Assembly (NCBI GenBank): GCA_964349515.1
Contig: CAYGHG010000017.1
Location: forward strand, 1 to 32,462
Direction: 5' to 3'
Length of the DNA: 32,462 bases
Origin: an uncultured Spirochaetia bacterium
GTDB taxonomy: Bacteria; Oederibacteriota; PGYV01; CAYGHG01
The notes below the pieces were generated by a model. That model had not been told where the DNA came from. It was given only the letters and a program-made list of their open reading frames with translations, and ran no database searches. This document shows positions 6,336 to 31,033 of this stretch, one piece after another; the stretch's first letter is position 1, and every line of letters starts with the position of its first letter. A program made the translations under genes and the position numbers.

Positions 6336-6398
6336 ATGAAGTTTAAAAATTAAAAGCTTAAAATTTACGGATTAGTGTAAATTAAAGCATATAAAGAA

Positions 6399-6426
6399 AA
6401 AGGCCCGTAAAGCGGGCTTTTTTCTT
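6399..6426 (+). terminator. Rho-independent terminator after the SPFH gene.
   Basis: GC stem GCCCG / CGGGC (6403-6407 / 6412-6416) with a 4-nt loop, followed by TTTTTTCTTT. Confidence 0.6.
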
Positions 6427-6440
6427 TATGGGAGGTTTTA

Positions 6441-6947
6441 ATGAAAGAGATAAAGGTAAAGCTTGAGGAAAAAGATTACAGGCAGTTTCTTTTTTACCAT
6501 ATGTACCGCGGTTTTAAGGGCAAAGTGAAACTTGCCATACCATTTATACTGATTCCTGTCATGTATGCTTCTCTGGTACAGAGCGGCAGGACGGAAAATA
6601 TGGATTCACTGCTGATTGTCTCACTGATTGCAGTCGTGTATACCGCATTTCTGCCTGTGTTAATTATGTTTATATCAAAGAAAACATACAATAAATCCGA
6701 ACAGTTGAGGCAGGAGGCTTTTTATGATTTTACGGCTGAGGGGCTTAAAATCCGGGGCGCGGCATTTACAGGAACCGCAGGGTGGGGCAAGTTTCACGCG
6801 GCCGGAATTACCGATAAGGCTGTATATATGTACACTTCCGCCCGAAAGGCACTGATTCTGCCTCTGCGTTTTTTTGACGAGGATTATGCGAAGGAGGTTG
6901 TGAAACTGGTGCGGGAGAATATGGGGAAAAAGGTCATGGGAAGGTGA
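6441..6947 (+). CDS. Small membrane protein, YcxB-like (two N-terminal TM helices plus a C-terminal soluble domain).
   Basis: RBS GGGAGG. Its stop overlaps the next gene's GTG start (GTGA). Confidence 0.5.
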   Translation: MKEIKVKLEEKDYRQFLFYHMYRGFKGKVKLAIPFILIPVMYASLVQSGRTENMDSLLIVSLIAVVYTAFLPVLIMFISKKTYNKSEQLRQEAFYDFTAEGLKIRGAAFTGTAGWGKFHAAGITDKAVYMYTSARKALILPLRFFDEDYAKEVVKLVRENMGKKVMGR

Positions 6948-7687
6948 AAGGTAAAACAGTAATAGTAACAGGCGCCGCGCAGGGTATAGGGCTGTGTATG
7001 GCGGGGTACTTTTCAGAGATGTCAATGAACGTAATAGCAACTGACATTGATAATGCTGCGATAAAAGAAGCAACAGTGTCTTTTCCAAAAATAAGGTTTG
7101 TCAAGACTGACAATGCGGACGAGAAGGCAATAGTAAAATGCGTTAAGTATGCAGCCGAAGAATTTGGAACCATAGACTGCCTTGTAAACAATGCCGGCAT
7201 CGGGATTAACAAGCCTGTTACTGAGATGAAATTGAAAGAATGGGAGCGCGTGATGTCGGTTAACGTTACCGGAGCAATGCTCTGGGTGAAATACTGCGCG
7301 CCTTATCTAAAGGCTTCAAAGGGCGCTGTGGTAAACATCGCGTCAACGCGGGCCCTTATGTCGGAAAAAAATACAGAGGCATACTCTGCGTCAAAAGGCG
7401 CGGTCTTAAGCCTGACTCACGCACTGGCCGTCAGCCTGGGCCCGGATATCAGGGTTAATGCCATCAGCCCGGGATGGATAGAAGTATCTGAATGGAAAAA
7501 GAAATCAGATGCAAAACAGCCGGCACACAGCGAATCCGACAAAAACCAGCACCCCGCAGGCAGAGTGGGCGTCCCGCAGGATATTGCGCACCTCGCATAT
7601 TATCTGTTAACAGATAAGGCGGGTTTCATAACCGGCCAGAATTTCACCGTGGACGGCGGTATGACGGTTAAGATGATTTATGAATGA
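6944..7687 (+). CDS. SDR-family oxidoreductase (FabG-like short-chain dehydrogenase).
   Basis: TGAAQGIG Rossmann motif, NNAG, catalytic S...YSASK, and the PG motif. GTG start overlaps the upstream stop. Confidence 0.9.
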   Translation: MKGKTVIVTGAAQGIGLCMAGYFSEMSMNVIATDIDNAAIKEATVSFPKIRFVKTDNADEKAIVKCVKYAAEEFGTIDCLVNNAGIGINKPVTEMKLKEWERVMSVNVTGAMLWVKYCAPYLKASKGAVVNIASTRALMSEKNTEAYSASKGAVLSLTHALAVSLGPDIRVNAISPGWIEVSEWKKKSDAKQPAHSESDKNQHPAGRVGVPQDIAHLAYYLLTDKAGFITGQNFTVDGGMTVKMIYE

Positions 7688-7693
7688 TAAAAT

Positions 7694-7760
7694 AAGCCAA
7701 TAAGACAGAAAAGATAAGTAAGAAAAAACCGGTACTTTTAAACTTTTGTCTTATTGGCTT
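7694..7760. repeat. Inverted repeat with 14-bp perfect stems (AAGCCAATAAGACA / TGTCTTATTGGCTT) and a 39-nt loop, between convergent genes.
   Basis: Arms at 7694-7707 and 7747-7760 are exact reverse complements. The repeat sits between the SDR stop (7687) and the response-regulator stop (7777). The loop is too long for a canonical intrinsic terminator. Confidence 0.4.
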
Positions 7761-7776
7761 TTATGAACTTGCCTGA

Positions 7777-8151
7777 CTACTGCGCCCTCCCCCCTCCTAA
7801 CTGTGTAATGACCGACGTCAGCTTTGTTATGCCCCTTGCTTTTGTGAGAAACGCGGAAGCGCCTGTTTCCATCATTTTTCTTTCAAGCCAGGGTTCTTCG
7901 GACTGGGCGAAAATCACTACAGGTATTGCCGAGGTCGTGATGTTCTGTTTTAACTCCCTTAAAGTTTCTTCGCCGTCCATACCGGGCATTTCGTTATCAA
8001 GGAGTATCACGTCGGGCTTTTCTCTTCTTGCTTTTTCGATTCCGTCAACTGCGTTAGTAGCCGGCACAAGTTCAAGCCCCGGAATGTGCCGTAAGTAGAT
8101 TGAAACCATCCTGATCAGCATAGGTGAGTCGTCAATGTAGAGTACCTTCAT
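7777..8151 (-). CDS. Single-domain CheY-like response regulator (receiver domain only).
   Basis: Start set at MKVLYIDDS, preceded by GGAGGGGG. The track's longer ORF has no RBS. It has the receiver hallmarks DD, the phospho-acceptor D in ILLDNEMPGMDG, T and K. Confidence 0.85.
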   Translation of the reverse strand: MKVLYIDDSPMLIRMVSIYLRHIPGLELVPATNAVDGIEKARREKPDVILLDNEMPGMDGEETLRELKQNITTSAIPVVIFAQSEEPWLERKMMETGASAFLTKARGITKLTSVITQLGGGRAQ

Positions 8152-8365
8152 TCTTACCCCCTCCGGCAGAAGACGCTGCAGAGCAAAAAACATACAATTG
8201 CCGTTTTTATTTTGTAACCGTCAAGAATAAACCGCCCTTGCAGAGTTTATACACTATAAACGCGGATAAGTCAAAGTTTTCGCTGATTTCGCCTTAAATA
8301 TCAGGGGAAAAAGGGTTTGGCGGATGTATCGCAAACCGCTGTGCCGGTATTAACCCAATCTTAAT

Positions 8366-8417
8366 TTGACTTAGTGCGCGGCTGTCTGATAATATATTAC
8401 TGTTCGGTAATATATTA
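8366..8417 (+). promoter_or_regulatory. arsR promoter (TTGACT, 18-nt spacer, TAATAT) with an overlapping perfect palindromic operator TAATATATTAC-TGTTCG-GTAATATATTA.
   Basis: 11-bp perfect inverted arms (8390-8400 / 8407-8417) overlap the -10 region just upstream of arsR. This is a typical ArsR/SmtB autoregulatory site. Confidence 0.5.
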
Positions 8418-8429
8418 AAGAGGTGGTAT

Positions 8430-8726
8430 ATGTCAGATGAATTGAAAGTTTTTAAGGCTTTAGGAGATAAGACAAGGCTGAAGATCATGAGAATGCTTCT
8501 GTCCGCCGGTGAGGTATGTGTATGTAAAATAATGTCATCGCTAAAACTCAATCAGGCTGCCGTGTCAAAAGCCCTTGGCGTGCTGAAAAGGGCCGGGCTT
8601 GTAAAAAAAAGGCGGGACGGCAGGTGGATGCATTACAGCATCGTACGGGGCGGCGGCCTTGCCTCAAAAGTCTGCGGGCTCATTGAAGCTGATAAAAAAT
8701 CAAAAAATAAGATGAGGTGTATGTGA
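8430..8726 (+). CDS. arsR: ArsR/SmtB-family metalloregulator with the canonical As(III)-binding CVC motif.
   Basis: wHTH with ELCVCDL-type site GEVCVCKIM and recognition helix [17 protein letters not shown]. It is the first gene of an arsR-acr3-arsC operon. Confidence 0.9.
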
Positions 8727-9790
8727 TGGAAAGAAGGCTTTCATTTGTTGACAGGTATCTTACTCTCTGGATTTTTCTGGCTATCGGCGCGGGAATACTG
8801 CTGGGCTTTTATGTCCCGCAGATATCAGAATCTATAAATTTGATGCAGATAGGCTCAACTTCGGTGCCTATTGCCATAGGCCTTATTCTCATGATGTACC
8901 CGCCTCTCGCAAAAGTAAAGTATGAAAAAATGGGGGAGGTTTTTCACAACAAAAAACTTCTCATATTCTCGCTGATACAAAACTGGATAGTGGGGCCTTT
9001 TGTGATGTTCGGTCTGGCGGTGTTATTCCTGCGCGATTACCCCGAATACATGGTCGGAGTCATACTGGTGGGTCTTGCGCGCTGTATCGCCATGGTAATT
9101 GTATGGAACGACCTGGCGCAGGGCGACAGGGAGCTCGGCGTGGGGCTGGTTGCTTTTAATGCAATAGCGCAGGTGTTATTTTATGCAGTGTATATCTGGT
9201 TCTTTGTTTCATTTCTTTTAAACGCGCTCGGCCTTGCAGAAGGAATGAATGTGCATATTTCAATATGGGAATCGGCAAAAATTGTTTTAGTATATCTGGG
9301 AATTCCGTTCGCGGCCGGCACTGTGACAAGGTACTCGCTTATGAAAGCAAAGGGCGCCGAATGGTATGAAAAGGTTTTTATACCAAAAATCAGCCCGATT
9401 ACACTCATTGCCCTGCTTTTCACGATAGTAGTAATGTTTTCTCTCAAGGGCGAGTACATAGTCAGGAAACCGCTTGATGTTTTGATTGTTGCCGTTCCGA
9501 TGATTTTTTATTTCCTGATAATGTGGTTCGGAACTTTCTTTATCGCAAAGGCTTTGGGTGCCGGGTATAAGCAGACGGTAACGGTGGCTTTTACCGCCGC
9601 AGGCAATGATTTTGAACTTGCGATAGCGGTTGCCATAGCAATTTTTGGCATAGCCTCTCATCAGGCTTTCGCGACCGTAATAGGCCCGCTTGTAGAGGTG
9701 CCGATTCTCGTACTTCTTGTAAATGCGGCTTTTGCGATGAAAAAACTATTCAAGGAAAATCAACCGCAGGTTAACCAAAAATTAACATAG
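8726..9790 (+). CDS. acr3: ACR3-family arsenite efflux carrier.
   Basis: About ten TM helices. The N-terminal region [25 protein letters not shown] is typical of the ACR3/ArsB(ACR3) family. The ATG overlaps the arsR stop (TGATG), with RBS GAGGTG 7 nt upstream. Confidence 0.88.
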
Positions 9791-9823
9791 GCCTGTTATG
9801 ATTTATAAAAACGGAGGTGAAGT

Positions 9824-10243
9824 ATGAATAAGGTGCTTTTTGTATGTATTCACAACAGCGCTCGCAGCCAGATGGCAGAGGCGTATCTAAACAAATTTGG
9901 AGAGGGAAAAGCAACTGCCGAGAGCGCGGGGCTTGAACCTGGAAATCTGAACCCGCTTGTCGTTAAGGTGATGGCAGAAGACGGAATAGACATATCAGGA
10001 AATAAAACCAAGAGTGTCTTTGATTTCTTCAAAGAAGGCAGGCTCTTCTCGCACGTTGTAGCGGTTTGCGACGCCGAAGCTGCAGAACGCTGCCCTATAT
10101 TCCCCGGAACAGGCAAAAAACTTCACTGGCCTTTTAAGGACCCGTCAAAAGCCGAAGGGACGGAAGAAGAAAAACTCGTTCAGATACGGGCGATAAGGGA
10201 TGAAATCAGGGAAAAGGTAAAAGAGTTTCTGGCAACGCTGTAA
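9824..10243 (+). CDS. arsC: Arsenate reductase, thioredoxin-coupled LMW-PTP type.
   Basis: N-terminal P-loop VLFVCIHNSARSQMAEA (CX5R(S/T) with catalytic Cys) plus downstream Cys residues (VCDAEAAERC), as in B. subtilis-type ArsC. RBS GGAGGTG. Confidence 0.9.
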   Translation: MNKVLFVCIHNSARSQMAEAYLNKFGEGKATAESAGLEPGNLNPLVVKVMAEDGIDISGNKTKSVFDFFKEGRLFSHVVAVCDAEAAERCPIFPGTGKKLHWPFKDPSKAEGTEEEKLVQIRAIRDEIREKVKEFLATL

Positions 10244-10247
10244 GTTA

Positions 10248-11354
10248 TTACAGCCCGCCGCTTTCAAGGGCTTTCAGGTTCTTTTTTATTTCTTCTTCAA
10301 GCGCGGGCGGCAGCCCGAATAGTTTTACATCCATAAAACCGCTGACTATGGAAGATATTGCCTCTGATTTTGTGAGGCCGCGGGCCATAAGGTAGAGTAT
10401 CTGGTCTTCATCGAGTTTTCCTATGGCCGCTTCGTGGGACATGTTGACATCTTTGAACCTTGTTTCAAGCTCGGGGATGGCGGAAATCAACCCTGTATCT
10501 TTCAGCATCAATCCGTCGCATTCCAGATGAGCATATACACCGGGGGCGTTGCCTTCAAGTTTTCCGCGCGCTATAACGTCTCCTCCGCTTGAAACCGTGC
10601 GGCTTATTATCTCCGCGCGGCTTCCTTCGCCGTTTAGCCTTACCCGCGCGCCCAGGTCATAAACCGAGCCTTCCGGCGCGAGCACGAGGGAGTTAAATTT
10701 AGCGACGGCGTTTTTGCCTAAATCCGCGACAGGATACATCTGCGTGATTTTTGTTTCACGCAGGGCTATGTAGTTTGAAATGTAAGTGCCGTTTTCCTCA
10801 ACTTTTATCGCAGAGCGCGGCCTTACTTCCATGTTTTTTGACCAGTCGTGTATCATGGTGTACATTAACGTCGCTCCCTTATCTACGAACATCTCTGTGA
10901 CGCCGATGTGAGAGCCATCGCCGAGATGTGATGAAGAAGCACAGCCGTTTATGATGTGAAGGGAAGACCCTTCTTCTAAAAAAATCATGTTATGGACTTT
11001 TTGTCTGAATTTGTCCTGTTTAATGAAAAAACAGGCCTGAAAAGGCATGTATGCTTTTACGCCTTTGCTTACTTTTATGAAGTATCCCGACTGGGTGTCT
11101 TTAAATGCGTCTTTTGTATATTCGTCCTTTTCAGGGCTGACAAGTGTCCACATCTTTTCTTTTACCCTGGGGTATTTCTCAACAGCTTTCTGCAGGGAAA
11201 GCATCTCCACGCCCTCCTGCCTCATGGAAACGTGGGTCACGCCGCTGTCGGTCATCATAAATGAACCTGCGCGGTTGTTTTCGTCGAGGTTTATTCCGGC
11301 GCGTTCTATTTTTTCCTTATCTTTTGGATCGACTGTTATTTCGTGTCCCGGCAT
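10248..11354 (-). CDS. sufB: Fe-S cluster assembly scaffold protein of the SufB/SufD family.
   Basis: About 368 aa with a beta-helix-type SufBD C-terminal region. It lies immediately downstream of sufC and overlaps it by 19 nt. The ATG with a GGGAG RBS is preferred to the upstream GTG. Confidence 0.8.
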   Translation of the reverse strand: MPGHEITVDPKDKEKIERAGINLDENNRAGSFMMTDSGVTHVSMRQEGVEMLSLQKAVEKYPRVKEKMWTLVSPEKDEYTKDAFKDTQSGYFIKVSKGVKAYMPFQACFFIKQDKFRQKVHNMIFLEEGSSLHIINGCASSSHLGDGSHIGVTEMFVDKGATLMYTMIHDWSKNMEVRPRSAIKVEENGTYISNYIALRETKITQMYPVADLGKNAVAKFNSLVLAPEGSVYDLGARVRLNGEGSRAEIISRTVSSGGDVIARGKLEGNAPGVYAHLECDGLMLKDTGLISAIPELETRFKDVNMSHEAAIGKLDEDQILYLMARGLTKSEAISSIVSGFMDVKLFGLPPALEEEIKKNLKALESGGL

Positions 11355-12076
11355 GCCGCACACTCCCTGAATCCGTTTTTCTGAATATCTTCAAAAAGCC
11401 TTTTTGCATCGTGCCTGCATTTTATCTTTCCGTCAAGCAGGGTATAACCATAGTCCGCGTCCACATAGTCAAGGATGTAGCCTGTGTGCGTAATTATTAA
11501 TGATGATTTTATTCTTTTTTCTTTATCCAGGTCGCGGCCGAGCAGCTGCCTGATTTTTGAGCCGATGAGCTTCATATTTTCTATGTCAACACCCGACTCG
11601 GGTTCGTCAAACATAACAAATGAGGGTTTCTGGGCAAATAACTGAAGCAGCTCGGAGCGCTTTATCTCGCCGCCGGAAAAACCCTGGTTTATGTCCCGTT
11701 CCATTAGATACCCGAGGTTAAGCGCCTTTGCGGCGACAGAAGGGTCCATGTTTACGTTGTTTTTTGTTTTGATCAGGTCAGCCATGCCTGAGAGTTTAAT
11801 TCCCTTGATGGAGGGCGGCCTCTGGAAATACATGCCGATACCCAGCCTCGCGCGCTCGTCAACCGGCATTGTATCAATTCTGCGTCCGTTGAATTCTATT
11901 GAACCTGATTTGATTTTATACTGGGGATACCCCATGATTGCCATCAGCAGGGAAGTCTTGCCCGAGCCGTTTGGCCCGAAAAGTATGTGTGTCTCGCCGT
12001 CGGGTATTGAGAGTTCGATGCCGTTTAGTATTTCTTTGCCAAAAACATCCACGTGAAGGCCTTTTACTTCAAACAT
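11336..12076 (-). CDS. sufC: Fe-S cluster assembly ATPase SufC.
   Basis: Walker A GPNGSGKTSL, Q-loop, ABC signature LSGGEIKR and Walker B FVMFDEPESGVD. It has the typical SufC length with no TM domain. Start at MFEVKG with an AAGGAG RBS. Confidence 0.9.
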   Translation of the reverse strand: MFEVKGLHVDVFGKEILNGIELSIPDGETHILFGPNGSGKTSLLMAIMGYPQYKIKSGSIEFNGRRIDTMPVDERARLGIGMYFQRPPSIKGIKLSGMADLIKTKNNVNMDPSVAAKALNLGYLMERDINQGFSGGEIKRSELLQLFAQKPSFVMFDEPESGVDIENMKLIGSKIRQLLGRDLDKEKRIKSSLIITHTGYILDYVDADYGYTLLDGKIKCRHDAKRLFEDIQKNGFRECAACRDTK

Positions 12077-12193
12077 TATCAGCTCCTTTTTTATTTGTGA
12101 CAATATATCATATTATCAGGTCAAAAAAACAGTAAAAATATTTGACAGTGTAATGCGGGTATACTAACATAGGTGAATAAGGAGCGTGAAGAG

Positions 12194-13135
12194 ATGAACT
12201 ATAAATACAAATATTCAGGGCTTTTTTTGAGTGCGGCGGTTTTTATAATATTCTTCAGTGCCGTATCGGTATATGCTGGCGGCGGGCCCGAACCGGTGAT
12301 TTTACAGCACGGCATGCAGGCGCCGGAGGCCGCAGCGCAGGGCCAAAAAAGTGAAGCCCCGGTGATAAAACCCGTGGCTGAAAAATACAGGCATCTTCTT
12401 GCTGAAATATCCGACATCAGAAACATTCCCGTAATTCACCTGGATGAAGCAAAAGCCCTGCTTGAAAGCGGCGAAGCTGTGTTCATAGACGCAAGGTCAA
12501 GGCAGGAGTATAATGCCTCGCATATACCGGGCTCGGAGTATATAGGAGCGGGGGATGCCCGCTATCGCATACCGTATCTTCGCGAAAAACTTGAGGGAAA
12601 GGTGCTGGTGCCTTACTGCCACGGCACGGCGTGCAGGCTCTCTGACAAGGTGGCGCAGAGTCTTTTTGACGCGGGCTACAGAAGGCTTGTAATTTTTAAC
12701 GGCGGATGGCCTGAATGGACACAGGCTTTTATGCCGGTTGAAAAGTATAATCCGCCTGAAACATACAGGTTCCTTGACGAGCCTGCGCCTTCAATAGCCT
12801 CAATAAGAAAAGTCAGCATTGAGCAGGCGCGGTATATTTTTGATAATGCACTGGCGCATTTTATGGATGCGGATGCAGAGGCAAAGTTTCATGATTTCAG
12901 GGTTCAGAATGCATACTCCATACCGCCCGAACGTTTCGACGAGAAAATGAGGGCTTATAACGGCATCTTTTTGAACGGCCCGGTTATTATATACGGCAGG
13001 GATATGTTCGGAATGAGGGCCTCTGAAGCGGCAAAAAGGCTGTATAGCGCGGGTTACAAGAGGGTGTTTTTAATGAAGGGGAGCCTTTCAAAGTGGGAAA
13101 AAGCGGGGCATCCGGTTTTTAAAAAAGCAAAGTAA
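12194..13135 (+). CDS. Exported/membrane-anchored tandem rhodanese-domain protein. Domain 1 has active-site loop CHGTACR (CX5R); domain 2 has no Cys.
   Basis: N-terminal hydrophobic anchor/signal. First rhodanese domain: FIDARSRQEY...VLVPYCHGTACRLSDKVAQ...GGWPEW. The second domain is degenerate. ATG at 12194 is preceded by AAGGAG. The track's 12173 start is a GTG inside the RBS. Confidence 0.8.
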   Translation: MNYKYKYSGLFLSAAVFIIFFSAVSVYAGGGPEPVILQHGMQAPEAAAQGQKSEAPVIKPVAEKYRHLLAEISDIRNIPVIHLDEAKALLESGEAVFIDARSRQEYNASHIPGSEYIGAGDARYRIPYLREKLEGKVLVPYCHGTACRLSDKVAQSLFDAGYRRLVIFNGGWPEWTQAFMPVEKYNPPETYRFLDEPAPSIASIRKVSIEQARYIFDNALAHFMDADAEAKFHDFRVQNAYSIPPERFDEKMRAYNGIFLNGPVIIYGRDMFGMRASEAAKRLYSAGYKRVFLMKGSLSKWEKAGHPVFKKAK

Positions 13136-13158
13136 ATCCCTCTATAAAACAATTCTGC

Positions 13159-13206
13159 TTGACTTTCTGATTGCGCCTGCTAATATATGCGTGTTAGCGC
13201 ATATAT
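13159..13206 (+). promoter_or_regulatory. Promoter (TTGACT, 16-nt spacer, TAATAT) with an overlapping palindromic operator ATATATGCG-TGTTAG-CGCATATAT. It lies upstream of the permease operon.
   Basis: 9-bp perfect inverted arms (13183-13191 / 13198-13206) with a 6-nt spacer TGTTAG. It closely resembles the arsR operator at 8390-8417 (TAATATAT outer half-sites, TGTT(C/A)G spacer). Confidence 0.5.
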
Positions 13207-13228
13207 GCATATATTATAGGAGTCTTCA

Positions 13229-14380
13229 ATGAACGATACGAAAAAAGCAATTTACATAATAGCAGGTTTTTTGATTCTGTTTTTCATCCCTTTTGAAAAC
13301 GCCGCCGTACGCGGCGCTGTCATGGAAGCCTTTTACATGGCTCAGGACTACGCCCGCGAGCACGTACTGCTGTGCCTGATACCCGCGTTTTTGATAGCGG
13401 GCGCCATTGCGGTTTTTATCAAGAGCGATTCCGTGCTGAAATACCTGGGGGCCGGCGCTAATAAAATCATTGCTTACGGTGTTGCTGCGGTTTCCGGCAG
13501 CGTGCTGGCTGTTTGTTCCTGTACGGTGCTTCCTCTATTCGCCGGGCTATATAAAAGAGGAGCCGGCATCGGGCCTGCGACAGCTTTTCTGTATGCGGGC
13601 CCTGCGATAAATGTGCTTGCCATAATACTGACCGCAAGAGTGCTGGGGTTTGAGCTCGGGGTGGCAAGGGTAATAGGCGCGGTGGTGTTCTCTATTGTAA
13701 TAGGGCTTCTCATGCAGCTATTTTTTTCAAAAGAAGAAGAGAAGAGGATGGAATCATTTCAGGCTGAAACCGAAAAGGGCAAGCCGGCTTTTAAGCTGGT
13801 TTCCTATTTTTTAGTCATGATTGCACTGCTTGTTTTTCTTAACTGGGGCAAAGACGAGTCCATGCCTGTATGGAACTCAATACATCAGGCCAAGTGGATA
13901 ATCTCGGGGATACTGCTGGCTGTACTTGTTTTTATGTCTGTTTTTTGGTTCGGGAAAGAAGAGCGAAAAGAGTGGTTTGCCGAGTCAGGCGGTTTTGCGC
14001 TGCAGATAATGCCGCTTTTATTTGCAGGGGTGCTGATTGCAGGTTTTCTTCTGGGCAGGCCCGGGCACAGCGGAATAATACCGGCGGAATGGATATCATC
14101 GCTTGTGGGCGGCAACTCAATAAAAGCAAATCTTTTCGCGTCAGTTGCGGGCGCTTTTATGTACTTTGCGACGCTGACGGAGATACCGATACTTCAAGGG
14201 CTGATCGGCTCGGGTATGGGAAAGGGCCCGGCGCTTGCGCTGCTGCTTGCAGGCCCGGCGCTCAGCCTGCCAAACATGCTTGTCATTAACAGTGTGATGG
14301 GTTTTAAAAAGACGGCTGTTTACACAGTGCTTGTAATAGTCATGGCCGCTGTCTCGGGGATGATATACGGAAGTATTTAA
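13229..14380 (+). CDS. DUF318 / ArsP-like permease (COG0701 family, conserved CxC in a TM helix).
   Basis: Polytopic membrane protein with the CSC-containing helix AVCSCTVLPLFAGLYKRGAGIGPATAFLYAGPAINVLAI. Its pairing with a small 'redox-active disulfide protein 2' and an ArsR is the typical genomic context of this family. Confidence 0.8.
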   Translation: MNDTKKAIYIIAGFLILFFIPFENAAVRGAVMEAFYMAQDYAREHVLLCLIPAFLIAGAIAVFIKSDSVLKYLGAGANKIIAYGVAAVSGSVLAVCSCTVLPLFAGLYKRGAGIGPATAFLYAGPAINVLAIILTARVLGFELGVARVIGAVVFSIVIGLLMQLFFSKEEEKRMESFQAETEKGKPAFKLVSYFLVMIALLVFLNWGKDESMPVWNSIHQAKWIISGILLAVLVFMSVFWFGKEERKEWFAESGGFALQIMPLLFAGVLIAGFLLGRPGHSGIIPAEWISSLVGGNSIKANLFASVAGAFMYFATLTEIPILQGLIGSGMGKGPALALLLAGPALSLPNMLVINSVMGFKKTAVYTVLVIVMAAVSGMIYGSI

Positions 14381-14408
14381 GAATGCCAAATAGAAAAGGA
14401 GGAAACTG

Positions 14409-14837
14409 ATGAGTGATTGCTGCAAAGGAAAGAAAGGCAGTTATGTTTATTCCTGTTCGGGTGCGGCGGATACGGGCTTCATAAGCGACAGGGTTGCGAG
14501 AATGCTCTCTGTTGCCGGGCACGGCAGTATGTACTGTCTCGCGGGGCTGGGAGGCGGTATTGAATCATTTGTAAAATCAGCTTCCGAAGCGGAGAGAAAC
14601 ATAGTTATTGACGGCTGTGCGGTCAAGTGCGGAAAGAAGATAATGGACAGGCATAGTATCTCATGCGAAAGCTATGTAGTCACAGATTTTGGTTTTAAAA
14701 AGGGTGAAACGGGAATGAGCGAAGAACTCGTGAGATATGCTTTTGTGAAAATCAACGAAGCGGTGGAAACAAAAACACCGTCTGAAAACGTCCAATCTTC
14801 AGGGCCCGGCCCGTGCTCTTGCGGGGGTAAGTGCTGA
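14409..14837 (+). CDS. Cys-rich DGC-domain protein (putative metal/metalloid-binding).
   Basis: Conserved IDGCAVKCG (DGC motif). Cys clusters at the N-terminus (MSDCCKG, YSCSG) and C-terminus (GPGPCSCGGKC). RBS AAGGAGG. Confidence 0.65.
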   Translation: MSDCCKGKKGSYVYSCSGAADTGFISDRVARMLSVAGHGSMYCLAGLGGGIESFVKSASEAERNIVIDGCAVKCGKKIMDRHSISCESYVVTDFGFKKGETGMSEELVRYAFVKINEAVETKTPSENVQSSGPGPCSCGGKC

Positions 14838-15226
14838 TGGAGCGCGCCCTTGAAATGTTCGCGGCCCTGTCGGATAAAACCAGGCTCAGGGCATACAGGC
14901 TGCTAATCAGGGCCGGCAGTGATGTTGCTGTATGCGAACTGATTGACGCCCTGCGGGAGTCGCAGTACAACGTGTCAAAACACCTTCAGGTTTTAAAAAA
15001 TGCCGGGCTGGTAAAAGAGGCGAAAAAAGGGCGCTGGTCGCTTTACTCTGCCGTAGAGGGCGCTGACTCGGGAATCGCTCAGGCAGTGCTGAAAATGCGC
15101 GAGGAAGTTTTTGAAGAGGATTACGGGTTTCTTAAAAAAAGGCTTGCTTTGAGGCGCAACGGCGAGATAGTTTCGTGCAAACTCGCGGGAGAACTCATGG
15201 AAAGTTTAAAAGGAGAAAAAAAATGA
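14837..15226 (+). CDS. Second ArsR/SmtB-family regulator, lacking the CVC As(III) site.
   Basis: wHTH LSDKTRLRAYRLLIRAGSDVAVCELIDAL...NVSKHLQVLKNAGLV. The site has a single Cys (AVC) instead of CVC. The ATG overlaps the upstream stop (TGATG). Confidence 0.85.
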   Translation: MERALEMFAALSDKTRLRAYRLLIRAGSDVAVCELIDALRESQYNVSKHLQVLKNAGLVKEAKKGRWSLYSAVEGADSGIAQAVLKMREEVFEEDYGFLKKRLALRRNGEIVSCKLAGELMESLKGEKK

Positions 15227-15456
15227 AAATTTCAGTGTTGGGCACGGGCTGCCAGAAATGCCACAAGCTTGAAGAACTGGCGAGAAAAGTGGTAAGTGAA
15301 AACAATATTAAGGCTGAAGTGGAAAAGGTAAGTGAGATAAAAAAGATAATGGAATTTGGTGTTATGATGACCCCTGCCCTGGCAATTGACGGCAAAGTTG
15401 TTCTTGCCGGAAAAGTGCCTTCGGAACAGGAAATAAAAAAACTGCTCGGAGCATAA
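15223..15456 (+). CDS. Small thioredoxin-fold 'redox-active disulfide protein 2' (CxxC = GCQKC).
   Basis: 77 aa. Start at MKISVLGTGCQKCHKL, preceded by AAAGGAG. The ATGA junction overlaps the ArsR2 stop. This family is characteristically adjacent to DUF318 permeases. Confidence 0.8.
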   Translation: MKISVLGTGCQKCHKLEELARKVVSENNIKAEVEKVSEIKKIMEFGVMMTPALAIDGKVVLAGKVPSEQEIKKLLGA

Positions 15457-15465
15457 GGAGGAAAA

Positions 15466-15945
15466 ATGAAGAGGTTATTAATCGCAGCAGGAGTACTGGC
15501 GGTTGCGGCCGTATTTTTGTTCGCCGGAAGCAAACCCAAAACGCAGGTTTCAGCCGAGCAGTCAAATCAGCCGGGAGCGGTAAGTTTAAACCGGGTTTCA
15601 AAGGAAACTGCGCCAGCTGTAAAGGAAAAAGACGGCGCAAAGAAGAAGTACAAGGTCACTTTTGTGGAGTTGGGCTCTGTACGCTGCATCCCATGTAAGA
15701 TGATGATACCGATAATGGAAGAGGTGGAGAGGCGTTTTGGCGACGAGGTTCTGGTGGTGTTTCATGACGTGTGGACGCAGGAGGGCCAGCCCTACGCGGA
15801 CAAGTATAAAATAAGGGGAATACCCACGCAGGTTTTTCTTGACGCTGACGGCAAGGAATTTTTCAGGCATACAGGTTTTTTTCCAAAAGAAGAACTTTTC
15901 AAGGTGCTTGAAAAGGGCGGGGTAAACATCAATGCCGGCAGCTAA
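15466..15945 (+). CDS. Exported TlpA/MauD-like thioredoxin (CxxC = CIPC).
   Basis: Signal peptide. Thioredoxin fold with VELGSVRCIPCKMMIP active site and the cis-Pro region IRGIPTQVFLDADGKEF. RBS AAGGAGG. Confidence 0.8.
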   Translation: MKRLLIAAGVLAVAAVFLFAGSKPKTQVSAEQSNQPGAVSLNRVSKETAPAVKEKDGAKKKYKVTFVELGSVRCIPCKMMIPIMEEVERRFGDEVLVVFHDVWTQEGQPYADKYKIRGIPTQVFLDADGKEFFRHTGFFPKEELFKVLEKGGVNINAGS

Positions 15946-16420
15946 AAAGAGCAGAAGCCTGAAAAAGGCAGGTAAAAAAAAGCGGCCGGCCCTTCGCAGG
16001 CAGCCTGCGAAAAAAAGAAAGCCGGTAAAAAAAGAAGCTGAAAAAAGGGTTTTTAAGCCGGGGCACGGCATAATCGCCGCAATATTAATAGGGGTTTTGA
16101 TTTTCTCCGCGGTATCGGTTCTATCCGGTGCGGATAAAGAGGTAATAATGATAACCGATTCAAAGGCCTGCAAATGCGTGAAGGTCAGGTGTATTTCGAT
16201 GGAAGAGCAGGTAAGGGAACAGCTTTCAAAAAGCAAAGCAGGGGCAAAGTTCACACTTATAGAGCTCAAAGACGAGAAACGCTCCAAACCGCTTATGGAT
16301 AAATACACCATGGGAATGGTGCCCTGCCTTGTTGTGGTGGACAAAAATGACAGCGTTGTTTACAGCGCGGGTGCATTTAACTTTAACACGGAAGAATTTT
16401 CAGCCGTGCTAAAAAACTGA
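15932..16420 (+). CDS. Membrane-anchored protein with a polybasic N-terminal tail and a thioredoxin-like C-terminal domain carrying an atypical CKC (CxC) motif.
   Basis: N-terminus MPAAKKSRSLKKAGKKKRPALRRQPAKKRKPVKKEAEKR, then one TM helix. Trx-like pattern (VIMITDSKACKCVKV ... MGMVPCLVVVD ... EEFSAVLKN). It overlaps the upstream gene by 14 nt. No RBS is evident. Confidence 0.5.
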   Translation: MPAAKKSRSLKKAGKKKRPALRRQPAKKRKPVKKEAEKRVFKPGHGIIAAILIGVLIFSAVSVLSGADKEVIMITDSKACKCVKVRCISMEEQVREQLSKSKAGAKFTLIELKDEKRSKPLMDKYTMGMVPCLVVVDKNDSVVYSAGAFNFNTEEFSAVLKN

Positions 16421-16431
16421 AAGGATGAGCG

Positions 16432-17148
16432 ATGATTGAACAGATATTTACTTCACTTACTCTTGCGCTTGAAAAGAGCGCGCTTATTGCCGTAGGAGCT
16501 TCTTTCTTATGGGGAATACTCAGCATTGTCTTGAGCCCGTGCCATCTGGCGAGCATACCTCTTATTATAGGGTTTGTGAGCTCACAGGAGGAAAAACTGA
16601 CTGTCCGCAAGGCATTCATAATTTCGCTCTTGTTTTCAGCGGGTATTCTTATTACAATTGCCATTATAGGGCTGATAACGGGGCTGGCTGGCAGGATGCT
16701 CGGAGACCTGGGAATCTGGGGGACGCTCGGAGTATCGGCGGTGTTCTTTGTAATAGGGCTTCATCTGCTCGGACTTTTTGAGCTGCCTTTTATAAGCGGC
16801 GGAATGAACCAGCCGGGGTTTACAAAAAAAGGTTATGTGGCGGCTTTTGTGCTCGGGCTGGTATTCGGGCTTGCTCTCGGGCCGTGTACTTTTGCCTTTA
16901 TGATGCCGATACTTGCGGTTGCTTTCAAACAGGCCGCGGCCAACTGGTTCTATTCATTCACGCTTGTAGCGGCTTACGCCATAGGGCACTGCGGGGTAAT
17001 AGTGCTCGCAGGCACTTTTACGGAGGCTGTTGAGAAATACCTGAAATGGGGCGAGAAGTCAAAGGCTGTAATAATTATTAAAAAAACCTGCGGCGTGCTG
17101 ATATTGGCGGCAGGGGTTTACATGATAGCGGGTATAGTTAAATTTTAA
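16432..17148 (+). CDS. ccdA: CcdA/DsbD-family transmembrane thiol:disulfide electron transporter.
   Basis: Six TM helices with the two conserved membrane Cys residues in IVLSPCHLASIPL and LALGPCTFAFMMPILA. Confidence 0.85.
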   Translation: MIEQIFTSLTLALEKSALIAVGASFLWGILSIVLSPCHLASIPLIIGFVSSQEEKLTVRKAFIISLLFSAGILITIAIIGLITGLAGRMLGDLGIWGTLGVSAVFFVIGLHLLGLFELPFISGGMNQPGFTKKGYVAAFVLGLVFGLALGPCTFAFMMPILAVAFKQAAANWFYSFTLVAAYAIGHCGVIVLAGTFTEAVEKYLKWGEKSKAVIIIKKTCGVLILAAGVYMIAGIVKF

Positions 17149-17159
17149 GGAGGAAAGAC

Positions 17160-18161
17160 ATGAAGAAAAAAAAGGCAGGAAAAAAAGTAAAATCCGCAAA
17201 GACACCAAAAAAGCCCCCCGCAGCCGCTGCTGTTACATGGAAAGACACTCTGACAGGTTCGGTGATAATATGTGCGGTGGCGGCGGCTGTTGCCCTGATG
17301 TACACGGGCACGCGGGTGCTTGCGGGAGTTGACAAGATTGATACGCAAGGCGGCGCGGAAACTTCGGCGTCATCAGAACCTGCGCCCGAGACGCTTAAAA
17401 AAATACCGCTTCCGGCAAAGTTCAGGCATTTGGCAAATAATGTGGCTAAAAAAGAAGACATACCCAAGATACACATAGAAGAGGCAAAGGCGCTTTTTGA
17501 AAGCGGCCGGGCTCTTTTTATCGACGCGAGAAGCGAACAGGAGTATAAGCAGTCCAGGATACCCGGCTCAATTTTCATAAGCGCGGGCGACCAGCCTTCA
17601 AAGATAGAAACATTGGCCGAGAAGCTGAAGGGCAAAGTGCTTGTCCCTTACTGCCACGGCGCGGGCTGCCATTTATCGGACAAAGTCGCCCACAGGCTGC
17701 ATGATATGGGATACAAAAAGGTCGCGATATTTTTCGGAGGCTGGCCGGAATGGACACAGGCGGCAATGCCCATAGAGGAGTACACTCCTCCCGCTGAGTT
17801 TGCGCATCTTTTCAAGGAAACCGGTTCTGTGAGTGAAATCAGGGAGGTCACGCTTGAAGAGGCAAAATTTCTTTATGACAACGGGCTGGGTATTTTTGTG
17901 GATGCGGACTACCGCGAAAAATACAACGAAAAGACCATATCAGGAGCGATATCAATCCCTTATGACAGTGTAAAACAGATATACCCGTCTTACAGAGGTT
18001 ATCTGCTGCAGAAACCGGTTATTGTTTATTGCCATGGCCGCGGAGGGAAATCAAAAAAAGCCGCTGAAGAACTGTATAATGAAGGGATAAAGAAAATTAA
18101 TGTATTTATCAACGCAATACCGCTCTGGGAGCAAAACAGCTACCCTATGATAAAGAGGTAG
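17160..18161 (+). CDS. Membrane-anchored tandem rhodanese-domain protein with a polybasic N-terminal tail (paralog 2; loops CHGAGCH and CHGRGGK).
   Basis: Strong RBS AAGGAGG. N-terminus MKKKKAGKKVKSAKTPKKPP, then a TM helix. Domain 1: FIDARSEQEY...VLVPYCHGAGCHLSDKVAH...GGWPEW. Domain 2: VIVYCHGRGGKS. Confidence 0.8.
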   Translation: MKKKKAGKKVKSAKTPKKPPAAAAVTWKDTLTGSVIICAVAAAVALMYTGTRVLAGVDKIDTQGGAETSASSEPAPETLKKIPLPAKFRHLANNVAKKEDIPKIHIEEAKALFESGRALFIDARSEQEYKQSRIPGSIFISAGDQPSKIETLAEKLKGKVLVPYCHGAGCHLSDKVAHRLHDMGYKKVAIFFGGWPEWTQAAMPIEEYTPPAEFAHLFKETGSVSEIREVTLEEAKFLYDNGLGIFVDADYREKYNEKTISGAISIPYDSVKQIYPSYRGYLLQKPVIVYCHGRGGKSKKAAEELYNEGIKKINVFINAIPLWEQNSYPMIKR

Positions 18162-18167
18162 GTGAAA

Positions 18168-18635
18168 ATGGAAAAAATTAAAGCTGTTTTAAGCAACAAA
18201 TATTTACTCGCGGCGTGCAGGATCTCAATAGGCGCGGTATTTGTACTCGCCAGTGTGGGGAAGATTCTCTTTCCTCATGAATTTGCGAGGGATGTTTACT
18301 CGTATATGCTGATGCCGGCTTTTGTTGTGCCTGCGTTTGCGGCCATACTGCCTTGGATAGAGTTTGCTTCCGGGCTCCTGCTTTTGGCAGACATAAAACC
18401 TAAGAGTTCGGCGGTGCTGGTTATGGGGCTGTTGTTGATGTTTATTGCGGCCATACTCTGGACAGTTGCAAACGGAATAGAGATTTCCTGCGGTTGTTTT
18501 GACATACTGTTTCCCGGGGAGAAAGCAGGCTGGTCAACAATTATCAGGGATGTGGTCATGATGGCAGTTATTGCGCCTGTGATGTTTTTTGACCACAATG
18601 ACGTAAGGATATACGGGCTGATTAATAAAAAATGA
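18168..18635 (+). CDS. MauE/DoxX-like membrane protein with the conserved CGCF motif.
   Basis: Four TM helices. Motif EISCGCFDILFPG is typical of MauE-family proteins, which are often fused or adjacent to rhodanese. ATG at 18168 is preferred (RBS AAGAGGTAGG) to the GTG at 18162. Confidence 0.7.
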   Translation: MEKIKAVLSNKYLLAACRISIGAVFVLASVGKILFPHEFARDVYSYMLMPAFVVPAFAAILPWIEFASGLLLLADIKPKSSAVLVMGLLLMFIAAILWTVANGIEISCGCFDILFPGEKAGWSTIIRDVVMMAVIAPVMFFDHNDVRIYGLINKK

Positions 18636-20114: not shown

Positions 20115-22661
20115 ATGATAAATCCGGAAAAACTTACAATTAAGGCTCAGGAGGCATTGAACAGTGCGCATTCGATTGCTTCTGAAAATTCCAACCAGCA
20201 GATAATGCCTGTGCATGTGCTGTTGGCAATGCTGGGTGATGAGGCGGGATTGATAAGAGCAATAGCGGAAAAAGCCGGGGTTTCTTCCTCGAAACTTAAG
20301 GCTGCCGCTGAAAAGGAAGTGTCCGGGCTGCCAAAAGTATCCGGTACTGCTGAGGTTTACATTTCACAGGAGACTGCGGGTATGCTGGAGGCTGCTTCCA
20401 AAAAGGCAAAAGAGATGAAGGATGAGTTTATCAACACAGAACATTTTTTGCTTGCAATGTCAGAACTTGGCGCGGTTAAGGAAGCCGGTCTCTCGGCGAA
20501 ACTGCTGCTGAAAGCACTGGCTGAAATCCGGGGCGGGCATCAGGTAACGGACCGCTCGCCTGAGGAAAAATACAGGGCGCTGAAAAAATACGGCAAGGAT
20601 TTGGTGGAGCTCGCTGAGAATAACAAACTGGACCCTGTGATAGGCCGGGACGCTGAAATCCGGCGTGTCATGCAGGTGTTATCCAGGCGGACAAAGAACA
20701 ACCCTGTGTTAATCGGAGAGGCAGGGGTGGGAAAGACCGCGGTAGCGGAGGGCGTCGCGATACGAATTCACAAAGGGGATGTGCCGGATAACCTTAGAAA
20801 CAAAAGAATCATCGCGCTTGACATGGGCGCGCTGGTAGCCGGCGCAAAATTCAGGGGGGAGTTTGAAGAGCGGCTTAAAGCCGTGCTCAAGGAAGCATCG
20901 GATGCAGACGGAAAAATAATTCTGTTCATAGACGAAATGCACCTGCTGGTAGGCGCGGGAAAAACTGAGGGCGCGATGGATGCGGCAAATCTGCTGAAAC
21001 CCGCGCTGTCGCGCGGCGAGCTGCAGGCAATAGGCGCGACCACGCTTAATGAATACAGGCTTCACATAGAAAAAGATGCCGCACTTGAGCGGCGATTTCA
21101 GCCGGTGCTTGTGGCAGAGCCTTCTGTTGAAGACACCATTTCCATCCTGCGCGGTCTTAAAGAAAGATACGAAGTACACCACGGGGTCAAAATACTTGAT
21201 TCTGCGATTATCGCAGCCGCAAAACTTTCGTCGCGTTACATACAGGGCAGGTTCATGCCTGATAAGGCAATTGACCTGATAGACGAGGCAGCTTCAAAAC
21301 TCAAACTTGAGATAGGTTCAAAACCGTACGAAGTGGACGGCCTGGAAAGAGAAATAGCAAGGCTTGAAACAGAACGAGAGGGCATAAGGCAGGAAAAAAA
21401 CGAAAACAGAGGTTCTGCGAAGCTTAAAGAGATAGAAAAAGAGATATCGAACTTAAAAGGGGAAAAAGATGCCCTTACGGCACGCTGGCTGAAGGAAAAG
21501 GAAGCCATAGAAAAGGTAAGAAGCCTTAAGGGTGAAATAGAACAGCTGAAAGCAGACGGAGAAAGGCATGAGCGTGAGGGGGAGTATGAAAAAGCAGCCA
21601 GAATCAAATACGGCGCTCTTAATGAAAAGGAAAAACAGCTTGCAGAGTCTGAAAAACTGCTTTCTTAAAACGCGGGAGCATCAAGGCTGCTTCAGGAAGA
21701 GGTGACTCCGGAGGAAATAGCAGGCATAGTGTCGTCCTGGACGGGAATTCCTGTTTCGAAAATGCTGGAGGCTGAGAGTGAAAAACTGCTGCACATGGAA
21801 GACGAACTAAAAAAGCGCGTGGCCGGACAGGACAATGCCGTGGCAGTGATATCCAACGGAATCAGGCGCAGCAGGGCGGGCGTTGCAGACTCTTCAAGGC
21901 CGCTCGGCGTGTACATGTTTCTTGGGCCGACAGGCGTAGGAAAGACAGAACTTGCCAAGTCACTTGCGTCATTCCTTTTTGATGATGAAAACTCGCTCGT
22001 GCGCATTGACATGTCCGAGTACATGGAAAAGCACGAAGTCTCAAGGCTTGTAGGAGCGCCCCCGGGATACATAGGGTATGAGGAGGGCGGGCAGCTGACA
22101 GAAAAGGTAAGGCGCAAGCCCTACTCGGTGATACTGCTCGATGAGATCGAAAAGGCGCACCCTGATGTATTTAACATACTGCTTCAGGTATTTGACGACG
22201 GCAGGTTAACCGACGGACAGGGCAGGACCGTAAATTTCAGAAATTCAATAATCATAATGACCTCCAATATTGCCTCGCACCTTCTGGCTGAAAAAATAGC
22301 AGGCGAAGAAGAAATGGAATCAGAATTAAAGAAACACTTCCGGCCGGAGTTCTTAAACAGGATAGACGACATAATCCTGTTCAAACGCCTGGATCGTGCT
22401 GTGATGGAAGGCATAGTTGACATGAGGATGAGCGAGCTTAATGCCCGGCTCGCGGAGCGCGGCATAATGGTGGAGGCTGACGCAGAGGCTAAAAAGCTTC
22501 TTGCCGAAGAAGGCTACGATGAGGTCTATGGCGCAAGGCCGCTGCGTCGTGTAATTCAGCGCCAGGTAGAAAACAAACTCGCATCCCTGCTGCTCGCGGG
22601 GAAAGTAAAAGAAGGAACGAAACTTGTTCTGACCGTGAAAGAAGGCGTCTTGTCCTTTTAA
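20115..22661 (+). pseudogene. clpB: clpB (Hsp100 disaggregase) interrupted by a single in-frame TAA at 21666-21668. The two parts stay in the same frame.
   Basis: First ORF: Clp-N, NBD1 (Walker [10 protein letters not shown]; Walker B ILFIDEMH) and the coiled-coil M-domain. Second ORF continues in frame 0: [23 protein letters not shown]2 [15 protein letters not shown], sensor/arginine-finger GARPLRR. Combined length is about 848 aa, as for a full ClpB. The second part has no credible independent RBS. Confidence 0.8.
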
Positions 22662-31031: not shown

Positions 31032-31033
31032 AT

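Follow-up and report, generated by a model that had tools for sequence, protein, structure and literature searches.

Among the described systems closest to the locus reported here is TsoB, a rhodanese/DsbD fusion-like selenoprotein that a 2026 review lists as carrying two selenocysteines (Sec) in a UxxxxU motif and being encoded within a 'three selenoprotein operon' that also has an ArsR/SmtB-type regulator, TsoR (PMC13188914). The locus is a cluster of ten plus-strand genes (g1 to g10, 12194-18635) on contig CAYGHG010000017.1 of an uncultured Spirochaetia bacterium, where "the window" denotes the whole stretch analyzed (positions 1-32,462 of the forward strand; 32,462 nt), and nine of these genes encode a candidate thiol-redox relay. 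TsoB was reportedly named by Haft and Tolstoy in 2025. It resembles the window proteins in uniting a rhodanese, a DsbD membrane domain, and a thioredoxin in one chain, in a UxxxxU spacing equal to that of the YC-x4-C loop of the window rhodaneses, and in its ArsR/SmtB regulator, but the window has separate genes with Cys for Sec and additionally encodes MauE, ArsP, DGC, and thioredoxin_3 proteins. Along the TsoB profile (NF045694, 572 positions), the rhodaneses g9 and g1 aligned to positions 39-161, the CcdA protein g8 to 175-395, and the thioredoxin g6 to 470-568, with scores of 45 (g9), 42 (g8), and 22 (g6) bits that fell below the cutoff of 805 and thus outside family membership. A MauE-adjacent rhodanese from a Dissulfurispiraceae metagenome-assembled genome (MAG; L023) matched TsoB positions 4-158 with 105 bits and carries YCGFTQC, from which we infer that the TsoB UxxxxU is the same loop as YC-x4-C. 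As judged by sequence, the window encodes a split, Cys-only equivalent of TsoB, and TsoB is the predicted fused counterpart of its CcdA arm. Two long rhodanese proteins (L054) considered as further rhodanese-DsbD fusions were rejected, being MBL-rhodanese and YedE-rhodanese proteins.

Parts of the cluster also have arsenic-linked precedents. [quoted passage not shown] These published sets place the same families (ArsR, ArsP_1, PF13192/TIGR00412, DGC, CcdA, and thioredoxin) in clusters beside or within ars genes, but neither report includes a rhodanese or MauE and both left gene function open. The original prediction, made from the window sequence alone, had recognized no described system in this combination; that claim is narrowed here, as parts were published in 2010, for ND132, and as TsoB, while the rhodanese-MauE pairing, for which no paper mentioning it was found, and its merger with the CcdA arm appear undescribed.

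From the gene content, domains, conserved cysteines, operator conservation, co-occurrence, and fusions observed, we tentatively read g2-g10, at a probability somewhat short of even, as an autoregulated, stress-inducible dithiol relay at the outer face of the membrane, centered on a redox-cycling rhodanese and having arsenicals or reactive sulfur as its probable signal.

Operon organization, operator, and conservation

All ten originally predicted plus-strand open reading frames (ORFs) were located, and the profile searches that had been proposed as a check found the domains as labeled by Pfam and NCBIfam, except that g6, previously called TlpA/MauD-like, is a classical thioredoxin without a TlpA, Redoxin, or MauD model match. 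The first gene of the operon, g2 (13229-14380), encodes an ArsP_1-family permease (262 bits in Pfam) with a vicinal C96-S-C98 pair, which scored about 110 bits, below the cutoffs, against the NCBIfam equivalogs SaoE and SO_0444 (Cu/Zn). ArsP proteins, which have a vicinal Cys pair, export methylarsenite and roxarsone(III). Gene g2 is followed by g3 (14409-14837), a cytoplasmic Cys-rich Pfam DGC-domain protein with ten Cys and no hydrophobic segment; g4 (14831-15226), a putative ArsR/SmtB-family repressor with an HTH_5 domain; and g5 (15223-15456), a cytoplasmic MTH895/ArsE-family thioredoxin-like protein (Thioredoxin_3/TIGR00412, 113 bits, cutoff 62) with C10-QK-C13. ArsE originates from the ArsEFG roxarsone/nitarsone system. 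The next three genes encode the exported or anchored thioredoxin g6 (15466-15945), with CIPC and a conserved cis-Pro region; the small anchored protein g7 (15932-16420), with its N-terminus predicted inside; and g8 (16432-17148), a CcdA/DsbD-type membrane protein (DsbD_TM, PF02683; 54.9 bits, cutoff 27.1) in which both Pro-Cys cysteines, C37 in SPCH and C152 in GPCT, lie within hydrophobic segments. The cluster closes with the tandem rhodanese g9 (17160-18161) and the MauE-family four-helix membrane protein g10 (18162-18635). The tight packing with overlapping start and stop codons described previously was evident in the ORF coordinates, with overlaps at g3/g4, g4/g5, and g6/g7, abutting g9/g10, and remaining gaps of 9-28 nt within g2-g10.

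A sigma-70-like promoter site with a TG before its -10 box (TTGACT-16-TAATAT, 13159-13186, plus strand; -35 at 13159-13164 and -10 at 13181-13186) lies ahead of g2, and a perfect inverted repeat, ATATATGCG-N6-CGCATATAT (13183-13206), overlaps its -10 box and has outer arms that extend to 13216, giving a putative control region of 13159-13216. The operator core TAATATATGCnnGTTAGCGCATATATGCATAT was unique in the window, with 0.01 chance matches expected, and was nearly invariant across the window and two relatives (L093 and L007) while the flanking intergenic DNA had diverged and the proteins were 56-84% identical, a pattern that marks it as a phylogenetic footprint. A related inverted repeat, AATATATGTA-N6-TGCATATATT, was upstream of the rearranged L102 operon. 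The promoter and palindrome of the original prediction therefore exist, but they separate g1 from g2 instead of heading the cluster at its 5' end, and the proposed ten-gene unit becomes one of nine genes (13229-18635), as g1 is upstream of the operator and is missing in the syntenic L093, where no gene lies between sufC and arsP. The absence from L093 indicates that g1 (12194-13135) is an extra accessory paralog of g9 outside the conserved operon. It encodes an exported tandem rhodanese 46% identical to g9 that has a cleavable signal peptide (...SVYA/GGG) instead of an anchor, a CX4C loop (YCHGTACR) in domain 1, and no Cys in domain 2; a promoter-like site for g1 (TTGACA-17-TAACAT, 12142-12170, plus strand), which is a consensus match only, occupies the divergent region shared with sufC.

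The regulator g4 matched the ArsR/SmtB helix-turn-helix model NF033788 with 76 bits, and the C35/C116 pair comprised the only cysteines kept in all four regulators compared (window, L093, L007, and L102). C35, in an AVCEL helix, takes the position of the first Cys in the canonical CVC motif and C116 is in a C-terminal extension. The protein consequently lacks the three-Cys arrangement of As(III)-sensing ArsR, which the neighboring ArsR (8430-8726) does have as CVC. Against the BigR model, g4 showed the conserved two-Cys pattern and a score of 19.6 bits (cutoff 155), and no BigR or SqrR structures were among its PDB sequence matches.

The gene-neighborhood analysis that had been suggested as a check showed that the set is kept in other genomes, including in one rearranged version. 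The recurring members were a two-Cys ArsR, ArsP, thioredoxin_3, an exported thioredoxin, CcdA, the rhodanese, and MauE, a set that occurred in no fewer than four lineages, arranged in two orders. The same nine genes occurred in the same order (ArsP-DGC-ArsR-Trx3-Trx-g7-CcdA-Rhd-MauE) in L093, L094, and L095, where synteny spans SDR, ArsR-Acr3-ArsC, SufBD/SufC, the nine-gene operon, MgtE, and ClpB. Eight of the nine (ArsP-DGC-ArsR-Trx3-Trx-CcdA-Rhd-MauE) were present in L007 and L100, with a rhodanese of 56% identity and a MauE gene that runs off the contig end, and the order in L102 and L103 was rearranged to ArsR-Trx3-TauE/SafE-Trx-g7-like-CcdA-ArsP-DUF5714/C_GCAxxG_C_C-Rhd-MauE. In a Spirochaetota ars island (L004 and L105), the arrangement was ArsR-ArsC-DGC-ArsP-CcdA-DUF2798-x-Trx3-Trx-CdhD-Rhd-Acr3.

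These data bear on whether three modules without a shared function came together here by chance: ArsP/ArsE/DGC as one cassette, a pair for cytochrome c maturation resembling CcdA-ResA, and rhodanese-MauE as a housekeeping pair. The modules do occur apart elsewhere, with rhodanese-MauE alone and ArsR-ArsP-ArsE-DGC alone in ND132, but recurrence of the set in several lineages after rearrangement argues against chance, as do the closely spaced genes behind one conserved operator and the TsoB fusion, which unites three of the parts. The g8 and g6 proteins resemble CcdA-ResA and the copper stress system ScsBCD in that a CcdA with both PC-motif cysteines stands beside an exported CxxC thioredoxin, with Scs as a stress-inducible precedent, but the proposed client here is a rhodanese, and genes for a cytochrome c synthase or for Scs proteins are absent. 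No ResB/CcsA-type (ccsBA/resBC) families were found among the window ORFs scanned, and the locus does not qualify as System II cytochrome c maturation. Chance assembly consequently appears very improbable.

Two further features of these relatives were recorded. The L102 operon (5031-13555) encodes two C_GCAxxG_C_C 'putative redox-active' proteins (one also DUF5714) instead of DGC along with the TauE/SafE-family exporter, and has an AcrB pump upstream and no ars genes nearby. CdhD-like genes (PF03599, corrinoid Fe-S protein small-subunit family) were in or next to ars islands with a CX4C rhodanese in L004 (8648-9670) and L006 (14246-15693), the L006 copy adjoining a ferredoxin gene and the L004 island having a methyltransferase and DsrE following Acr3; from their sequence context, they may belong to an anaerobic corrinoid-dependent arsenic methyl-transfer system.

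The CX4C rhodanese and its MauE neighbor

Both window rhodaneses contain two PF00581 domains (g1 86 bits and g9 94 bits, cutoff 22). The g9 protein is anchored with its N-terminus predicted inside and carries YC165HGAGC170H (CX4C) in domain 1 and YC291HGRGGKS in domain 2. Its AlphaFold2 model (predicted local distance difference test score, pLDDT, of 85) shows residues 27-54 as the anchor helix, along with two domains that are well folded. An indexed search returned 49 homologs, those with a named source being Goldbacteria/Goldiibacteriota and Spirochaetota MAGs, and in a 20-member alignment C165 and C170 were invariant (YC-HGxG-C) and C291 was about 90% conserved. On this alignment, the family hallmark is an invariant YC-x4-C loop in a predicted exported or anchored rhodanese. 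C165 aligns with the catalytic Cys of 6mxv, the closest solved rhodanese, whose active-site loop is shorter by two residues. In the PDB, the best fold matches of the g9 model were sulfurtransferase-type tandem rhodaneses, 3-mercaptopyruvate sulfurtransferase, and EanB, and all 50 best matches were sulfurtransferase-type or uncharacterized rhodanese-fold proteins.

The original prediction had seen a Cdc25/Acr2-like CX5R loop in g1 and judged it compatible with a thioredoxin-recycled periplasmic arsenate or selenite/polysulfide reductase or sulfurtransferase, of which the arsenate (or selenite) reductase is considered here. The likeness to Acr2/Cdc25 arsenate reductases lies in the rhodanese fold, the extended active-site loop, and arsenic-related neighbors, and is strengthened by CHGTACR in g1, the nearby ars operon, and the L004 and L006 rhodaneses situated between ars genes. 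The low-molecular-weight protein tyrosine phosphatase (LMW-PTP) type ArsC offers a parallel in its thioredoxin-reduced Cys-Cys cascade. The subgroup signature H-C-X5-R was nevertheless absent from g9 (Y-C-HGAGC-H), where Tyr and not His precedes the Cys; the residue following C170 was mostly His among the 20 aligned members, with Arg in g1 and a few others, which shows that HC(X)5R does not characterize the family. Cdc25, Acr2, and ArsC were absent from the names of the 50 best fold matches, the nearest structures being sulfurtransferases, and the predicted location is outside the cytoplasm, where making arsenite gives no obvious benefit. Most family members moreover have no ars context and a cytoplasmic ArsC is already present, such that an arsenate reductase seems very improbable and the Cdc25/Acr2-like reading of CX5R is withdrawn.

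The MauE gene is immediately downstream of the paired rhodanese. The association was counted from 160 loci obtained by scanning one genome per species plus metagenomes, with identical proteins and cases without downstream sequence removed and [YFW]C-x4-C as the motif scored. MauE was adjacent to 72 of the 92 rhodaneses with the motif (20 not adjacent) and to one of the 52 without CX4C (a truncated ORF; 51 not adjacent), giving a Fisher p = 3e-21 uncorrected for phylogeny. Pairs were found in at least eight lineages (Goldbacteria, Spirochaetia, Firestonebacteria, Ignavibacteria, Bacteroidota, Dissulfurispiraceae, Victivallales, and Geothrix). No third gene consistently accompanied the pair when 110 neighbor proteins of 18 pairs were compared with Pfam, in which glycosyltransferases (5/110) and PurD (4/110) were counted. 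The 'complete pathway' described originally, from CcdA through thioredoxin to the rhodaneses, left out what seems to be the most conserved relationship, that of rhodanese with MauE.

The MauE protein g10 matched PF07291 with 90.7 bits (cutoff 27) along with a weak DoxX Pfam match, and its C110-G-C112-F-D is in a predicted outward loop after helix 3; CGCFD was invariant in the family alignment. Rhodanese-linked MauE proteins have CxC at the same position, nearly always as CGCF and occasionally as CGCY, CGCL, or CSCF, and among the MauE family at large (6,847 cluster representatives at E <= 1e-10 in an exhaustive profile search), C[GAS]C[FYW] was present in 146 of the best 150 representatives. 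The NCBI family name 'MauE/DoxX family redox-associated membrane protein' shows that curators had noticed redox neighbors, and to our knowledge no biochemical mechanism has been described for MauE itself.

The exhaustive profile search also revealed MauE fusions, none of which were returned by a word-indexed homolog search. Nineteen long proteins begin with a MauE domain, of which P0185 continues with a fifth transmembrane helix and a rhodanese (TYCSGEEC), and 15 others have a CxxC downstream of the MauE domain, with a Pfam thioredoxin-fold domain in six of these, one of the six being DsbA-like. In the seven fusions checked by hydropathy, P0185 included, the fused domain is brought to the same side as the CGC loop by an additional hydrophobic segment. 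The pattern suggests that the CX4C rhodanese fills the slot held by CxxC-bearing, probably thioredoxin-fold, domains in other MauE proteins.

Several characterized membrane thiol-redox pairs can be compared with this arrangement. In methylamine dehydrogenase clusters, MauE-MauD likewise pairs a small membrane protein with an exported thiol-redox protein, but the partner there is the DsbE/TlpA-like MauD and not a rhodanese, and no mauA, mauB, or mauD-type genes were found among the window ORFs scanned, which excludes the locus from the mau clusters. DsbB-DsbA and VKOR-thioredoxin also combine, as pairs or fusions, a four-helix membrane protein having outward cysteines with an outer dithiol protein, and their fusions need an extra helix; they differ in that MauE has a single CxC pair and a rhodanese-fold partner and no sequence similarity to them was detected. 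At the structural level, the g10 model gave no PDB match in Foldseek at E <= 0.001 and hence no similarity to DsbB or VKOR. DoxDA is a thiosulfate:quinone oxidoreductase. In it and in DoxX-SseA-SodA, a DoxX-clan membrane protein acts with a rhodanese in thiol or sulfur redox, but SseA is a cytoplasmic, single-Cys sulfurtransferase and the genes are not a conserved adjacent CX4C/CGC pair. DoxX-SseA-SodA has been mentioned as a membrane oxidoreductase complex of M. tuberculosis (PMC11614215).

The fusions and comparisons also permit an envelope disulfide-bond system, in which the CX4C rhodanese would be a DsbA-like oxidant or DsbC-like isomerase, MauE a DsbB/VKOR-like re-oxidase, and CcdA-thioredoxin the reducing or isomerizing arm, with ArsR-type control boosting folding under thiol stress. 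The fusions join MauE interchangeably to CxxC domains or to a CX4C rhodanese and the pair stands alone in many housekeeping contexts, both as such a system would predict. Two further points count in its favor: the small subunit of methylamine dehydrogenase, which is rich in disulfides, depends on MauE and MauD, and Chng et al. reportedly found in 2012 that PspE rhodanese, when overexpressed, can substitute for DsbA in E. coli. The second, single-Cys rhodanese domain (C291) suggests sulfur chemistry over pure disulfide exchange, however, and the ArsP, ArsE, and DGC genes with their repressor argue for a toxicant response; together with the missing fold similarity of MauE to DsbB or VKOR, these leave disulfide-bond formation an unlikely function.

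A bolder proposal, which we regard as possible but doubtful, is that the YC-x4-C rhodanese and CGC-MauE would constitute an unrecognized, widespread two-component envelope thiol oxidoreductase in which a rhodanese fold replaces the thioredoxin-fold partner of DsbA-DsbB and VKOR-Trx, wired in this Goldbacteria-like genome to a CcdA reducing arm and ArsP under a thiol-stress repressor. If true, the MauE/DoxX-clan proteins would gain a first defined partner and mechanism. These proteins are very common, and the pairing of CGC-MauE with a two-Cys rhodanese and the fusions supply a concrete, testable partner and topology.

Further members of the rhodanese family were found in other settings. A third window paralog (29064-29702, plus strand) is a 212-aa single-domain protein with a Lys-rich N-terminal tail, one transmembrane helix, TYCHGSGCH, and TYCHGSGCHLADK; its gene directly follows a GT4/glycogen-synthase-like gene (27822-29057), precedes those for a TolC-like OEP (29796-31031) and an RND adaptor (31004-31984), and has no adjacent MauE. 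Rhodaneses of this type matched the NCBIfam model 'rhoda_near_glyco' below cutoff, and the genes around two short homologs, P0047 and P0043, gave no useful indication. Two-domain relatives (8001-9044) were also at the end of clusters in L097, L098, and L099 that encode Fur, thioredoxin, DsrE, a YgaP-like transmembrane protein, Nitro_FeMo-Co (NifX-like), CbiA/ParA-type Fe-S ATPases, an MBL-fold hydrolase, and a CoA-binding protein, which by gene content is a putative recurrent redox/metal cluster of anaerobes.

Proposed relay and competing explanations

Topology was assigned from hydropathy and the positive-inside rule, simple rules used in place of a dedicated predictor, and these place the domains of both rhodaneses (g1 and g9), g6, and g7 outside and g3-g5 in the cytoplasm, in agreement with the extracytoplasmic rhodanese and thioredoxin placement predicted originally. 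The g7 and g9 proteins begin with K/R-rich cytoplasmic tails (20 and 11 K/R, respectively), each then followed by one helix, and g6 has a signal peptide or anchor by hydropathy. In the MauE model (pLDDT 80.6), C110-G-C112 is in a loop following helix 80-103 that, provided the basic N-terminus is inside, would face outward. The g7 protein is possibly thioredoxin-like, matching Thioredoxin_8 below the cutoff (E=0.0015), and has C80-K-C82, C87, and C132 in its outer domain. It is a near-orphan with one homolog (58% identity, all four cysteines retained) among 5.8 billion proteins in an indexed search, and weaker phmmer matches were present in L102 and L103.

For the outer-face dithiol relay favored here, the inducer, substrate, and direction of electron flow are proposed as follows. 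The two-Cys g4 would bind the palindrome over the -10 box and be released by a thiol-reactive ligand or oxidant, most likely a trivalent or organo-arsenical, since MAs(III)-type arsenicals need only two thiols, with reactive sulfur (persulfides) as the second candidate. The Cys-x-Cys lined ArsP-type exporter g2 would expel the toxicant, and the ArsE-like g5 and DGC protein g3 may handle it or supply reductant in the cytoplasm. Cytoplasmic reducing equivalents would be moved by g8 to the outer-face g6, and perhaps also to the CxC protein g7, for g6 to reduce the C165-C170 disulfide of the anchored rhodanese. C165 would react with the substrate or take up sulfane sulfur and C170 would resolve the adduct, leaving an intramolecular disulfide that needs re-reduction, a cycle in which g9 would not act as an Acr2-type arsenate reductase. 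MauE would be the dedicated membrane partner of the rhodanese with its CGC on the same face, and is probably quinone-linked by analogy with DsbB, VKOR, and DoxD. The link to arsenic comes from the canonical ars operon 2 kb upstream, from the L004 copy embedded in ars genes, and from the published ars-operon gene set and arsenic-induced ND132 operon noted above.

Several observations weigh against this relay, in addition to the lack of phylogenetic correction in the pairing statistic. Topology is based on hydropathy and charge rules, and the absence of a structural match of MauE to DsbB or VKOR makes the quinone link pure analogy. If a CcdA reducing arm and a possibly oxidizing MauE both worked on one protein, the result would be futile cycling, barring kinetic separation of the two. 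The regulator has no canonical As(III) triad and no sensor-subfamily model matched it above cutoff. Most rhodanese-MauE pairs are in unrelated neighborhoods with no ars, CcdA, or thioredoxin genes, from which it follows that the core job of the pair is not arsenic-specific and that CcdA is dispensable. Some relatives are in the Fur/thioredoxin/DsrE/Fe-S clusters and L102 has TauE/SafE and no ars genes, which point toward sulfur or general redox stress.

A further rival is sulfane-sulfur processing, in which the rhodanese would take sulfur from thiosulfate or polysulfide at the outer face, its second Cys would release sulfide, and CcdA-thioredoxin or MauE/quinol would re-reduce the disulfide, with the sulfide neutralizing thiophilic metal(loid)s as thio-complexes or the polysulfide itself being detoxified. 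It would account for the sulfurtransferases among the best fold matches, the DsrE genes adjoining family members, the gene of the TauE/SafE sulfite-exporter family in L102, and the two-Cys ArsR arrangement, which resembles persulfide sensors and matched BigR weakly. Ray et al. reportedly observed in 2000 that thioredoxin accepts sulfur from GlpE, a further point in its favor. Also in its favor are the thioarsenicals that may occur in ND132 and a rhodanese induced there by As (bioRxiv 10.1101/2022.10.17.512643). The active-site loop is longer by two residues than that of the aligned sulfurtransferase, however, the window contains no genes for sulfur oxidation or reduction, and the regulator scored far below the BigR cutoff with no BigR or SqrR among its PDB sequence matches, so that we hold sulfane-sulfur processing to be rather unlikely as well.

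The operon offers a possible role for the CcdA and thioredoxin genes, as well as the redox-active-disulfide genes, of ars operons, which may serve an outer-face rhodanese and not cytoplasmic ArsC. Should its substrates at the envelope be arsenicals or sulfane sulfur, the relay would represent an additional step in how anaerobes detoxify arsenic and sulfur, and it would offer a model of the selenoprotein TsoB that is Cys-based and genetically separable.

Surrounding genes

The ars operon and SufBC pair named as neighbors in the original prediction were identified by family matches as a canonical plus-strand ars operon (8430-10243) of ArsR (8430-8726, CVC), Acr3 (8717-9790), and an LMW-PTP ArsC (9824-10243), and as SufBD and SufC on the minus strand (10248-12103). 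The ars operon has its own TTGACT...TAATAT promoter-like site and inverted repeat, TAATATATTAC-TGTTCG-GTAATATATTA, at 8367-8418. This putative operator and that of g4 share AT-rich arms and a 6-bp spacer TGTTnG and differ in the inner triplet (TAC/GTA vs. GCG/CGC), a comparison of sites that points to two ArsR repressors, paralogous to each other, whose operator specificity has diverged.

Downstream of the operon, MgtE was rejected as a member of the system, as it follows MauE only in the window and the close relative L093 and other genes occupy that place elsewhere. An Rfam scan of the window gave no matches, and hence neither mgtE nor the operon is preceded by a riboswitch. A minus-strand ORF (7777-8193) located between the SDR gene and the ars operon encodes a 138-aa response-regulator receiver that is absent from the syntenic L093, where the SDR gene is directly followed by ArsR; an overlapping 114-aa plus-strand ORF (7754-8098) had no family match and is probably not a gene. 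Finally, clpB (20115-22661) is broken by an in-frame TAA at 21666-21668 into ORFs of 517 and 319 aa in the same frame. The identical split was found in two other assemblies (L001 and L002) and ClpB is intact in L093 (848 aa), and the split gene represents either a nonsense mutation/pseudogene or a strain-specific variant.

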